From a virus: a stretch of 64,000 nucleotides of DNA. Both the position numbers and the translations under genes were made by a program. This document shows, piece after piece, positions 56,344 through 59,685 of the stretch. The stretch's first letter is position 1, and the number at the start of each line of letters is the position of its first letter. The notes under the pieces are model-generated. The model had not been told where the DNA came from, ran no database searches, and saw nothing but the letters and a program-made list of their open reading frames with translations. The stretch is from the IMG/VR virus record IMGVR_UViG_3300034198_017445, positions 1-64,000 of that record; one strand, written 5' to 3'.

Positions 56344-58092
56344 TTGAGCGTTAAAAACTGGGTCTATGGTGGTAAGGTTCCTACGCCACAAGAGGCTGTC
56401 GATGAGGCGATCTTCACGGCGCACAAGTATCGAAACAAGCTGTGTGAGTTGGAGCTGGAAAAACGGAAGCGGCACTACGATTTGTTGCGTCGGCTTGCTC
56501 CTGAGTTTGTTGCTGCTGAGGAAACGGTCGCGACGTTGGAGGCGGCGCTGGGTGCCTGTCGCGAAAAGATCCAAGCGGAACGGGTGAAGCAGCGGACGAA
56601 AACTCCGACTGGGTGCAAGACCTGGATTGCCGAAAGTGCGGACATCAAATCGCGGTTAAAAGATGCGCGTGCAGTCTTGAAGGCTGCGAAGCATGCGGCT
56701 TACGATGATCCTGCTGTCAAGGCTGCGATGGATGCGAACAGCGAGCAGCATAAATCCGAGTGTGCTCAAGCCAAGCAGGAGTCCGGGCTGTACTGGGGGA
56801 CCGAAGCGGTGATCCGTGATTCGTGTCGATCGTTTGCGAGTGGTGCTCCACCGAAGTTTGCGCGGTATGAAGGGCGCGGTCAGTTGGCTGTCCAAGTCCA
56901 AGGCGGGATGGATTGTTCCAAGGCGATCGATGAGAACACGTTGGTCTACATCGTTGGCGAGGGTCGGAAGCGAACGGCAAAGGTTCGCATTGCTTCGGAC
57001 GGTGGGCGACCGGTGTTCGCGGATCTACCGATCGTGTTCCATCGGGACTTGCCTGACGGCGCTATCAAGTGGGCGTTCCTGCAGAAGCGGATGCGTGCGA
57101 ACAAACCGAAGTACAGCTTGCGTCTTGCGATCGACGTTGCTGATCCTGTCGATGTGCAGGTTCCTCCGGGTGAGGTTGCGATTCACGTCGGCTGGCGAAA
57201 GCACGGGGACGGATTAAAGGTCGTGACTTGGCTCGGGAGCGACGGCGAGAAAGGTTCGCTCGTGCTTCCGGCTTCTCATTGCGAGGACTATCTCAAGCTG
57301 GACAAAATCAAGTCGGAGCGTGACATCGAATTCGGAAAGGCGATTGATCATTTGCGTGGGTGGCTGGAGTGTCGTGGCGATGTGCCTGAGTTCTTGGAGG
57401 AGGTTCGATCGCACTTGCATGCGTGGAAGTCTCAGAAGCGGTTGGCTGCTCTCGTGGTGGCTTGGCGCGATGCTCGCTTCGATCCGTGGGATATTGATAT
57501 TTTCGAGTACCTGGAGGCGTGGCGAAAGAAGGACAAGCATGCATGGCAGCACGATGCTCGGTTGCGGGAGCGAATCGCTGGTCGTCGCAAAACGATCTAC
57601 CAGACGTTTCTGTGTGGTCTTGCTCGGAGGTACGGAGTGGCGATCGTTGCTCCGATCGATGCGAAGGAGTTGACCGAAAACAGCGAGCCAGAAGACTTGA
57701 CGGCGGATCCAACGTTGCAGCATCGGCGTGCGAAGTGGGCTGCTGTATCGACGCTGATTCAGTACGCTCGCGAAAAATGGCCTGAACGCTGCATCGAAGT
57801 GGACGGTGCGAACATGAGTCGCCAGTGCATGCGGTGCGGTCACGTCAACGAACCGCAAGGCAAGCGGGTGCAGTGCCATGGTTGCGGTGCTACTTGGGAT
57901 GTGGACATCAACGCGGCTACGGTTATGCTCGAACGTGGTCAGGCTGCGGCGCGTGATGGTGCTCTTGATGCGTTGGTTGAAGCGAAGGAAAAGAAAGCCG
58001 AGGCTGCTCGCGAGAAACTTGCAAAGATGATACAGGCGCGGCGTGATGCTTCTGCTCGCAAGCGTGCTGAGATGGAGGGCAGCGAGGCTTAG
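56344..58092 (+). CDS. cas12m: Type V-M Cas12m-like (TnpB-derived) RNA-guided DNA-binding effector with a non-canonical RuvC
   Basis: 582 aa. Motifs AHKYRNKL-x-E, long coiled-coil REC, GLYWGT, PKFARYEGRGQLAVQ, WED FHRDLP. RuvC-I VAIHVGWR (His at the Asp site), RuvC-II IVAPID (no Glu), CMRC/CHGC finger, RuvC-III WDVDINAA. Adjacent to a pseudoknot repeat array. Confidence 0.88.
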   Translation: MSVKNWVYGGKVPTPQEAVDEAIFTAHKYRNKLCELELEKRKRHYDLLRRLAPEFVAAEETVATLEAALGACREKIQAERVKQRTKTPTGCKTWIAESADIKSRLKDARAVLKAAKHAAYDDPAVKAAMDANSEQHKSECAQAKQESGLYWGTEAVIRDSCRSFASGAPPKFARYEGRGQLAVQVQGGMDCSKAIDENTLVYIVGEGRKRTAKVRIASDGGRPVFADLPIVFHRDLPDGAIKWAFLQKRMRANKPKYSLRLAIDVADPVDVQVPPGEVAIHVGWRKHGDGLKVVTWLGSDGEKGSLVLPASHCEDYLKLDKIKSERDIEFGKAIDHLRGWLECRGDVPEFLEEVRSHLHAWKSQKRLAALVVAWRDARFDPWDIDIFEYLEAWRKKDKHAWQHDARLRERIAGRRKTIYQTFLCGLARRYGVAIVAPIDAKELTENSEPEDLTADPTLQHRRAKWAAVSTLIQYAREKWPERCIEVDGANMSRQCMRCGHVNEPQGKRVQCHGCGATWDVDINAATVMLERGQAAARDGALDALVEAKEKKAEAAREKLAKMIQARRDASARKRAEMEGSEA

Positions 58093-58102
58093 GGTATGGT
58101 TC

Positions 58103-59685
58103 TCCTGCTCATGGGAGTTGTTCATGAGATAATGATCTGGAATATGCTAATGCCTATCAATCGGCTTTGTTGCTTGAAGACGAACTATGTGGCTGATCGG
58201 TGCCATCGTTACCGAAAATATGGGTCTGTTGCGTTATCGCCAATCGCGAGGCTTTGTTTCGCTGATATCGATGCAGTTCACCGCCTGCTCGGAGGCTTTG
58301 TTTTCGAGATACAACGACGTGGTTGCTTTTGATTTTATGCCTGCTAGGTGGCATCGTTACATTGGCTCGAACTTGAATTTCATTCATTGCGTGCGATGGG
58401 GCATCATTCCATTGACATACCCGTAAGCCTGCTCGGAGGCGTTATATCGGAGACAAAAAGCATACGGGGAGACTATTTGGACTGCGATTGATTTGCCTGT
58501 CGTGAGGCGTCGTATCGCGAAAACGAGATTGATCACATGATTCCGCCTGCGGACCGGCTTCGTTGGTCCGGCGCAAGGACATCGTTGCCTGCTCAGAGGC
58601 ATTGTGTCTGAGACGTTCGCGAGAACTTCGATCTGTCGCCTGCCATGAGGCTTTGTGTCATGGACGGAGTCCATAATGCCCGAAAGTGAAACCAAAAACA
58701 TACCGATCAGCTCGGTCACAAATGCTCTGTGGGAGTGCCGTGATTGCGGCTGCGAGTCGAGCGATGTGTACTGGTTCAGTTGTTTGGGTGCGAGGCTCAA
58801 GAAGCCGAGGTGCGCGTGCTGCCATGAGAAGGCGGTCGTCTCTGGTTCGTCTGTTTACGAAGAAGGGACTATTGAAATGTCTGGTTGCCAGCAACGGGTG
58901 TACGGTAGGCATGTTCGGGGAATCTACTTGTTTCGGGAGGAGAAGTAACTTGCTTGTGCCTGTTCGGAGGCATCGTATCCGTGACGACCACTGTTTTACC
59001 CGCCTGCGCTGGGGCGTCGTTTCGGTGAGTGTGACTACACAATCTCCTGCGCGGTGGAGTTGTAACCGTGGCCAGATTAGCGATTTTGCTTTAAGCCTGC
59101 ATGGAGGCATCGTATCTATGACCCCATTGTGCCGTGTTCATTGCCTGCTCGGAGGCGTCGTATCCGAGATGAAACATTTGCTATCTCGTTTTCATTGCCT
59201 ACCGTGAGGCGTTGTTTCATGGATCCGACCATAGCTTCCGGCGTGGCTTTGTAGCGTCGATGGCCTGATTGCGTGCGCCTGCTTGGAGGCTTTGTTTCCT
59301 TGGCTCAATACGATCAGTGAGAATTTTGCCTGCTCAGTGGCGTTGTAACTGCGATCCAGGATTTGGTTGGCGTATCGCCTGCTTGGAGGCTTCGTTTCCT
59401 GAACATGATGCATCGCTGCTCAGTGCCTGCTCAGCGGCTTTGTTGCTGGGATGAAAAGTCACTTTGCCATCTATCGCCTGCGGACCGGCGTGGCTGGTTC
59501 GACGTCAGCCATTTTTTGTAATCGTCACGAAACTGTTTCATGACGGTTTTGTCCTGCGCATCGGACTTGTTGGTGCGACAACGCGGAAAATGTGGAAAGT
59601 ATTGATGGTGCTCGGATGAAATTGGAATCGTCACGAAACTATTCTGTGACGTGTTTTGCCTGCTCGGAGGCTTTGTATCCGTGAC
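58103..59685 (+). CRISPR. Degenerate, structure-conserved array of 26 28-nt repeats with very short spacers, interrupted by a small ORF
   Basis: Repeat starts: 58103, 58152, 58191, 58239, 58283, 58339, 58389, 58427, 58495, 58545, 58587, 58638, 58958, 59002, 59045, 59095, 59143, 59197, 59234, 59277, 59328, 59377, 59425, 59476, 59552, 59658. Consensus GCC-TG-CTCGGA-GGC-(T/G/A)T(T/C)GT-W-TCCGAG-A(C/T). Confidence 0.88.
58676..58948 (+). CDS. Small Cys-rich (Zn-binding) protein embedded in the array
   Basis: GGAG directly after repeat 12; CRDCGC...CACCH; fills the 292-nt gap between repeats 12 and 13. Confidence 0.55.
   Translation: MPESETKNIPISSVTNALWECRDCGCESSDVYWFSCLGARLKKPRCACCHEKAVVSGSSVYEEGTIEMSGCQQRVYGRHVRGIYLFREEK

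Follow-up and report, generated by a model that had tools for sequence, protein, structure and literature searches.

Every Cas12m protein assayed so far binds DNA without cleaving it (PMC11013384; PMC10442227), and the type V-M CRISPR systems built on these effectors, among them those of MmCas12m2 (PDB 8hhl/8hio, PMC10442227) and GoCas12m (PDB 8pm4, PMC11013384), lack an adaptation module, show no sign of a trans-activating CRISPR RNA (tracrRNA) and have arrays of identical 36-nucleotide (nt) repeats with spacers of about 36 nt. Their mature CRISPR RNAs (crRNAs) are reported to be 50-60 nt long, with a heteroduplex of 17 base pairs (bp) (PMC11013384; PMC10442227). Such systems are known from plasmids, chromosomes and some prophages, the last being noted in a 2024 review. 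Recently, a preprint of September 2026 claimed the first phage-borne Cas12m with an ordinary array, MvCas12m of myxophage MV-1, which adjoins its array and for which no protospacers were found (10.64898/2026.09.14.751636). Together with the GenBank entry of phage Rctr197k (KX853510.1), this preprint documents ordinary arrays beside Cas12m genes in phages. In this study, we report a locus on a stretch of 64,000 nt (the window), bases 1-64000 of the 74,334-nt IMG/VR virus record IMGVR_UViG_3300034198_017445, in which a cas12m gene is followed by an array whose repeats all differ in sequence and conserve a common fold. This locus is probably a type V-M module that a tailed phage of 74 kb carries as accessory cargo, with the array serving as a fixed and compacted set of guide RNA genes.

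The cas12m gene occupies 56344..58092 on the + strand, and the first repeat unit starts at 58103, leaving a gap of 10 nt after the stop codon that ends at 58092. The main array consists of block A (58103..58665, +), in which 12 units of 28 nt start at 58103, 58152, 58191, 58239, 58283, 58339, 58389, 58427, 58495, 58545, 58587 and 58638 and are separated by intervals of 10-40 nt; block B (58958..59503, +), in which 12 units start at 58958, 59002, 59045, 59095, 59143, 59197, 59234, 59277, 59328, 59377, 59425 and 59476; and two last units at 59552-59579 and 59658-59685 (+). Seven more units form an orphan mini-array (40375..40677, +; starts 40375, 40418, 40468, 40511, 40559, 40601 and 40650), located 16 kb upstream of cas12m between the + strand open reading frames (ORFs) 40067-40375 and 40709-41272. 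A minus-strand ORF of 353 amino acids (aa) at 39914-40975, which overlaps the mini-array, is probably spurious, as it matches no family and its neighbours and the units lie on the + strand.

All 33 units have the same gapless layout, S1(3)-2-S2(6)-S1'(3)-6-S2'(6)-2, and no 28-mer occurs twice among the 33, which between them have 25 different S2 arms. Their pairwise identity averages 62% and falls to 36% at minimum, being 45% in the S2 columns and 76% in the others. The commonest S2 arm, CTCGGA, is found in five units, and S1 varies as TCC/GGA at 58103, 59045 and 59552, GGC/GCC at 58191 and ACC/GGT at 40511. For the motif GCCTG-N6-GGC, 25 occurrences were counted where 1.6 are expected. No units lie outside the two clusters, in which they score 26-39 bits against 14 bits for the next best match in the window. 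A weak look-alike at 7949-7976, inside an ORF, has S2 paired at 5/6, has lost S1' and resembles unit 58239, and may be a chance match or a relic. A preliminary description of the window, made without database searches, had given 26 units beginning 10 nt past the cas12m stop, a total of 33 repeats, a fixed geometry, no two identical repeats, the S1 variants in the main array, seven S2/S2' pairs and incomplete pairing of units 58339 and 59277; each of these was located as described, units 58339 and 59277 pairing at 4/6 in S2.

Pairing within the units far exceeds that of controls. Paired cells amount to 93.9%, compared with 69.0% in shuffled and 35-45% in slid controls, and double-change cells number 73 against 21 in shuffles, a value reached by none of 500 shuffles. 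For S2 alone, 91% of cells pair, with 68 double-change cells and many G-U intermediates, and double changes are seen at 6/6 S2 pairs and 2/3 S1 pairs. When 21 units were picked by a motif blind to S2', they formed 5.48 of 6 pairs, against 3.80 +/- 0.22 with partners permuted (0/10,000 permutations). The pairing by covariation reported in the preliminary description is thus more than chance. A coding repeat is ruled out, since the unit periods are not multiples of 3.

As a separate observation, fully complementary S2/S2' cross-pairs between neighbouring units number 0/60, against 5.2% of all non-self pairs (p about 0.04), a result that weakly suggests that orthogonality between neighbours is maintained.

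These data bear directly on the view that the locus is a relic, an old and unused CRISPR array in decay whose protein is perhaps retained for another reason. The terminal repeats of ordinary arrays do degenerate, and in the relatives described below heterogeneity is found chiefly towards the older, distal end. Pairing is incomplete in four units, the intervals include short ones and ones of odd length, the composition has drifted to AT, and the module is accessory, being absent from kin phages. Neutral decay, however, would break pairs, yet 91% of S2 cells still pair at 45% S2-column identity with 68 double-change cells, and compensatory change of this kind argues strongly against neutral decay of the scaffolds, while remaining silent about the guides. 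Moreover, the unpaired conserved columns are also kept across related systems, several of them matching bases read by Cas12m2, the effector ORF is intact with its RNA-reading residues conserved, and phage genomes are under strong pressure to shed useless DNA. We therefore regard decay of an abandoned array as quite improbable.

Related loci were gathered from IMG/VR, JGI metagenomes and GTDB genomes by way of protein relatives, together with a DNA-pattern search for closely spaced units. Downstream of Cas12m homologues with 27-54% identity, ordinary arrays were found, with identical 36-nt repeats spaced at a period of 71-75 nt. In these repeats the 3' 28 nt read GCC-TG-N6-GGC-NTNGTN-N6-AC and are preceded by an 8-nt A/T-rich flank. 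Between systems, S2 differs and covaries (98% paired), and S1 is invariant in the 19 repeats aligned from 15 related loci; the covariation score within the phage, 0.659, matches in size the 0.585 between systems whose proteins are only ~27-54% identical to that encoded here, and the diversity of repeats within this one phage equals that between those systems. A covariance model, R2, was built from the repeats of 15 other Cas12m-type loci only, with the phage units excluded. At E<=1 it recovers 30/33 units, of which 20 reach E<0.01, and it gave no further match on either strand of the window (128 kb of searched strand).

The crRNA of Cas12m2 forms a 6-bp pseudoknot helix between positions -22..-17 and -8..-3, followed by A(-2) and C(-1); the protein contacts the helices through the backbone and reads G(-23):A(-2), C(-1) and G(-12) base-specifically, with A(-24) flipped out and stacked (PMC10442227). 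The layout that the preliminary description had given for Cas12m repeats is essentially this one, the loop being one nt shorter in Cas12m2 (PMC10442227), and it is exact in the canonical repeats of the relatives. Because R2 recovers 30 of the 33 units and the arrays of the relatives share the layout, the units are identified as cognate crRNA scaffolds, in which a 3-bp stem is interleaved with the 6-bp stem to give an H-type pseudoknot. The unpaired bases conserved among the units are G5, A27, T16 and G18-T19, and the same columns are conserved across related systems; G5, A27 and G18 plausibly correspond to the bases that Cas12m2 reads specifically (G-23:A-2 and G-12). Selection maintains the pairing and a few directly read bases, and the stem sequences drift freely.

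Searches for other repeat-like elements were negative. A weight-matrix scan and the covariance model found no repeat match that could be an anti-repeat of a tracrRNA, either on the other strand or elsewhere than in the two arrays. Tandem Repeats Finder reported no array and Rfam no family (the tools run did not include a dedicated CRISPR finder), and it is plausible that such an array escapes finders that depend on repeat identity. The near-identical direct repeats of a canonical array are replaced here by 33 distinct ones. A further model, R1, gave no match at the whole-genome E threshold on the metagenome-assembled genome of Pirellulaceae that contains locus L007.

The array is not unique, as related phage loci share its trend in milder form. 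Arrays are uniform in L002, L003, L007 and L016, and uniform with few compensated variants in L013, L015 and L029. Canonical units lie next to the gene and heterogeneous, shortened units distally in L040, L043 and L054, and heterogeneity is complete in L053 and in the orphan clusters of L036. The relatives thus form a graded series, with the array of 33 distinct repeats at its extreme. At Rctr197k (L065:6837-8417), a Cas12m homologue that is 31% identical and annotated 'similar to transposase' adjoins an annotated CRISPR, whose repeat follows the same layout and has AGA/TCT as S1 instead of GCC/GGC, an instance of family-level covariation of the short stem.

The series also includes L009-L011, which have a single unit after the gene (L009:3977-4004, L010:2805-2832, L011:2348-2375); they represent one phage from three samples, its Cas12m is 54% identical, the one unit is followed by ordinary genes, and the arrangement looks like a natural single-guide Cas12m. 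At L054:1188-1502 the units are interspersed with genes, no cas12m gene is present within the fetched stretch, and a 104-aa ORF resembles, as judged by eye, an excisionase or MerR-type helix-turn-helix protein.

The same comparisons bear on the possibility that the differing repeats were gathered by recombination from many Cas12m arrays, a mosaic origin that would fit any function. Some S2 arms are indeed common to other systems (CTCAGC in L009, L053 and L040; CTCAGT in L040 and L013), the loop variants ATCGTA, GTCGTA and TTTGTT echo differences between systems, and near-copies are common to the two arrays of the phage, unit 40601 resembling 58638 and unit 40650 resembling 59425, with different spacers. 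Such an origin, however, would require ~25 donor systems; many units stand one or two compensated steps, or a G-U intermediate, away from CTCGGA, which is the signature of change in place; and the S1 variants TCC/GGA, ACC/GGT and GGC/GCC occur in 0/19 repeats of the 15 related loci. Assembly from many donors therefore appears very unlikely.

The product of the gene at 56344..58092 has 582 aa, as had been stated. A phmmer search against the PDB matched it to a solved Cas12m, 23vw_A (E 3.5e-45, covering residues 21-532), to Cas12m2 (8hio, E 7e-32) and to GoCas12m (8pm4, E 4e-25), and Pfam identified the TNB zinc-ribbon domain PF07282 (E 9e-9). The AlphaFold2 model, for which the alignment consisted of 26 relatives, reached a predicted local distance difference test score of 87.3. 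With Foldseek, the full-length model aligned to 8hhl (Cas12m2) with template modelling (TM) scores of 0.71/0.70 and to 8pm4 (GoCas12m) with 0.72/0.70, the next family being Cas12f at a TM of 0.45 at most. The Cas12m identity given in the preliminary description thus agrees with both sequence (E 3.5e-45 to 23vw_A) and structure (TM 0.71-0.72) searches. About 50 metagenomic proteins are 43-66% identical to this protein, the three nearest being P0002 (66%), P0003 (64%) and P0004 (56%); scans of viral contigs with P0002 and P0004 as queries gave no match.

The RuvC positions of the protein are His281, Ala436 and Asp521. Throughout the clade alignment of 26 members, RuvC-I is His (26/26), RuvC-II is Ala, Ser, Cys or Thr and acidic in 0/26, and Asp521 of RuvC-III is invariant, this being the sole acidic RuvC position retained. 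The effector, as judged from its sequence, is a Cas12m with a degenerate RuvC site and probably does not cut, consistent with its earlier designation as nuclease-dead. The triads listed for Cas12m clades are HEK, HQK, HDD, DED, NED, DND and NDD (PMC10442227; PMC11013384), which exclude His-Ala-Asp, and MvCas12m also differs in retaining D-E-D. His233-Arg234 align with the crRNA-reading His269-Arg270 of Cas12m2 and are kept in 25/26 and 26/26 clade members, respectively.

The intervals between the units have a median length of 20.5 nt (9-78 nt) and cluster at 14-16 and 20-23 nt, and the median unit period is 48.5 nt, compared with ~72 nt in the relatives. Together with the 28-nt scaffold, these lengths give a unit roughly as long as a mature Cas12m crRNA. 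The spacers are all unique, with lengths far from constant, as against ~36 nt in related canonical arrays, and the 8-nt flank that precedes the scaffold in the relatives is left here merely as a weak T-rich bias.

We propose that, without Cas1 and Cas2 to supply fresh repeat copies, the array became frozen and each repeat then evolved independently through compensatory substitution. With no acquisition re-copying the repeats, they would drift under selection for the fold and the contact bases only, and unused sequence would be deleted, namely those parts that processing would discard: the 8 nt that flank the scaffold at the 5' end of the repeat, and the distal half of each spacer of 36 nt. This would leave back-to-back units of mature crRNA size, each a 28-nt scaffold with about 15-23 nt of guide. 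The array would be co-transcribed with cas12m, Cas12m would cut upstream of each scaffold, and the resulting complexes would bind DNA flanked by a protospacer-adjacent motif without cutting it, blocking transcription or replication. Their targets would be sequences of the host or of competing mobile elements, not of the phage itself. That the units guide DNA binding is suggested by how this protein family is known to behave, by the lengths of the intervals and by the presence of an intact cognate effector, and on these grounds the locus may act as the multiplexed repressor envisaged in the preliminary description. The same description had ascribed the diversity of the repeats to selection against recombination, a cause that is dispensable, since a frozen array under structure-only selection explains the divergence without it.

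A number of results weigh against this proposal. No target was found for any guide in the searches made here. The spread of interval lengths is wide, and three intervals of only 9-11 nt are too short for guiding. GC content is 0.43 in the intervals and 0.33 in their last 6 nt, against 0.53 in the genome; this AT-richness could be neutral decay or the remnant of the 5' repeat flank, and guides would be only about 12-15 nt long if that flank were still needed for processing. Four units pair at merely 4/6 in S2, the final scaffold base, C(-1) in Cas12m2, is C or T among the units, and the assignment of RuvC-II to Ala436 is based on pairwise HMMER alignments.

The target searches covered several sources. 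Against the 74-kb phage itself, the best 17-nt windows and the exact 9-13-nt seeds equalled those of shuffled controls, and matches were likewise at chance level against 27 kin-phage loci (335 kb) and when the spacers of all fetched loci were compared with each other and with the phage. Pirellulaceae were chosen for a host search since a contig with a 44% relative had been binned there; across 301 genomes the best matches to the array were 19-25 nt long, fell in the ORF within the array as often as in spacers, and were not aligned with guide starts. GenBank phages gave no match to the array.

The lack of targets, and the loose (9-78 nt), AT-rich intervals, would suit an arrangement in which the scaffolds are functional and the intervals mere linkers. 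The units would then be RNA decoys for the Cas12m of the host or of a rival element, acting as an RNA anti-CRISPR of broad spectrum, or cis signals for cutting or masking phage transcripts, such as that of an ORF embedded in the array. This ORF (58676..58948, +) encodes a Cys-rich protein of 90 aa with cysteines in the pattern CxxC...CxCC, and appears coding from its GC content at third codon positions, which is 0.64 in frame and 0.48-0.49 in the other frames, compared with 0.62 in cas12m. Its GGAG follows directly after unit 58638, exactly at the guide-start position, and 9 nt separate its stop from unit 58958, so that the ORF is bracketed by units. No useful relative of it was found in Pfam, PHROG, the fetched loci or the Atlas.

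Linker-only intervals also accord with the interspersion of units with genes in other phage loci (L054 and L040), and the range of S2 in this one phage equals that among Cas12m systems, as a multi-specific decoy would need. Lone-repeat RNA anti-CRISPRs are known (PMC11656645). These, however, mimic a host repeat and come without a cas gene, whereas here an intact and conserved effector of the phage's own is encoded 10 nt upstream of the units. Most intervals, furthermore, are at 14-16 and 20-23 nt, near the 17-bp heteroduplex, instead of having shrunk to nothing, and stem diversity would be needless for a decoy if Cas12m recognises the stems by their backbone. On balance, scaffolds without guides are an unlikely explanation, and we favour the frozen guide array.

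The phage origin of the locus, proposed in the preliminary description, is in keeping with the source of the record in IMG/VR, its CheckV completeness of 100%, and the presence of genes for a large terminase (TerL, 50978-52501), a tail fibre protein and a helicase; the genome also encodes a ParB-methyltransferase. The absence of cas1, cas2 and cas4 from the window, noted earlier, extends to the whole 74-kb genome, where six-frame searches that did give matches in control genomes found none of Cas1, Cas2 and Cas4. The stretch is present in one public run, a DNA run and probably the source sample of the assembly, and Logan contigs from this run equal the array sequence with zero differences, showing that it is not the quirk of a single assembler.

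Unannotated ORFs, cas12m and the main array make up a variable island of ~7 kb (52876..59783, +), delimited by comparison with the kin phage L071, in which homologues of the island-flanking genes (52557-52838 and 59651-60100) lie only ~200 nt apart and the island is missing. A set of kin phages was collected by TerL, comprising 27 loci at 38-68% identity (26 at 56-68%) with DNA of <=10 kb on each side of TerL, some contigs being shorter; no Cas12m gene or scaffold unit was found around TerL in any of them (27/27). From these comparisons the Cas12m module is judged to be accessory. The flanking ORFs matched no family.

Towards its 3' end the main array contains further elements. A terminator-like hairpin of 9 pairs followed by a T run (59490..59520, +; from a consensus scan only) overlaps the 3' half of unit 59476, and is likely the end of the main array transcript. 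Unit 59476 has the same S2 arm as unit 58545 and an odd loop, GTGGCT, and its scaffold may have been recruited into the terminator. A repeat-family scan identified a 55-nt element in two copies, 73% alike (59516-59570 and 59622-59676, +), each with a small hairpin (core CGTCA...TGACG) and a T-rich stretch that leads directly into one of the last two units; the element may serve as a terminator, a promoter or a processing signal.

Comparison with described systems shows where the locus is conventional and where it departs from them. It shares with type V-M the fold and size of the effector, the want of an adaptation module and of any sign of a tracrRNA, the pseudoknot scaffold with a 6-bp helix and a 2-nt tail before the guide, the His-Arg pair and a RuvC site that is non-canonical in sequence. 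It differs from them in its 33 differing repeats, the loss of the 5' 8 nt and the intervals of ~15-23 nt, and in being encoded by a phage, whose genome has an additional orphan array and a gene within the main array. MV-1 and Rctr197k likewise have a Cas12m gene beside an array in a phage without cas1, cas2 or cas4, but in their arrays a single consensus repeat recurs every ~72 nt, unlike the fully heterogeneous and compacted array found here.

More distant parallels exist among engineered and domesticated systems. Engineered non-repetitive guide arrays (extra-long single guide RNA arrays) also combine many guides with handles that vary in sequence and keep their structure; they are man-made for Cas9, with synthesis and genetic stability as design aims, whereas the phage array is natural. 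TldR proteins (TnpB-derived nuclease-dead repressors) are RNA-guided members of the TnpB/Cas12 lineage with no nuclease activity and a fixed guide; they are smaller, use a single long omega-like RNA and have a host regulatory role, in contrast to a Cas12m with short crRNA units in arrays. The atypical repeats of CRISPR-associated transposons (CAST) and cr-like regulatory RNAs reportedly also have diverged repeats flanking hard-wired guides, in a non-adaptive and usually DNA-binding or regulatory role. CreA-type guides reportedly have diverged repeats around hard-wired guides in a non-adaptive role (10.64898/2026.06.02.729485). Such cases reportedly have known targets and 1-2 units at each locus, mostly next to a normal array, compared with 33 units here. 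The literature search found no paper on arrays of all-different, structure-conserving repeats or on their compaction.

A more far-reaching reading, which we offer tentatively and do not think likely, is that phage Cas12m arrays have turned from adaptive memory into inherited small-RNA gene families, each unit being retained for a fixed target in the host or in rival elements, and that the stems are selected as mutually orthogonal 'barcodes' that favour local folding of the closely packed units and preclude recombination. If true, the array would be a hard-wired silencing programme of ~30 guides and a natural mutational scan of the tolerance of the Cas12m handle.

The array shows from natural sequence what Cas12m needs in its guide RNA, namely the shape of two short helices and a handful of fixed bases, and it offers ~25 variants of the handle that are tolerated in nature, for a small protein that binds DNA without cutting and is already used in base editing, CRISPR interference and genetic circuits. 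Arrays of this kind are likely missed by CRISPR finders that depend on repeat identity, and phage-borne CRISPR systems may therefore be undercounted. The graded series from ordinary through mixed to fully diverged arrays provides a way to study what becomes of arrays after adaptation stops and selection continues. If the guides are functional, the phage would carry a fixed multi-guide repressor aimed at its host or its rivals.

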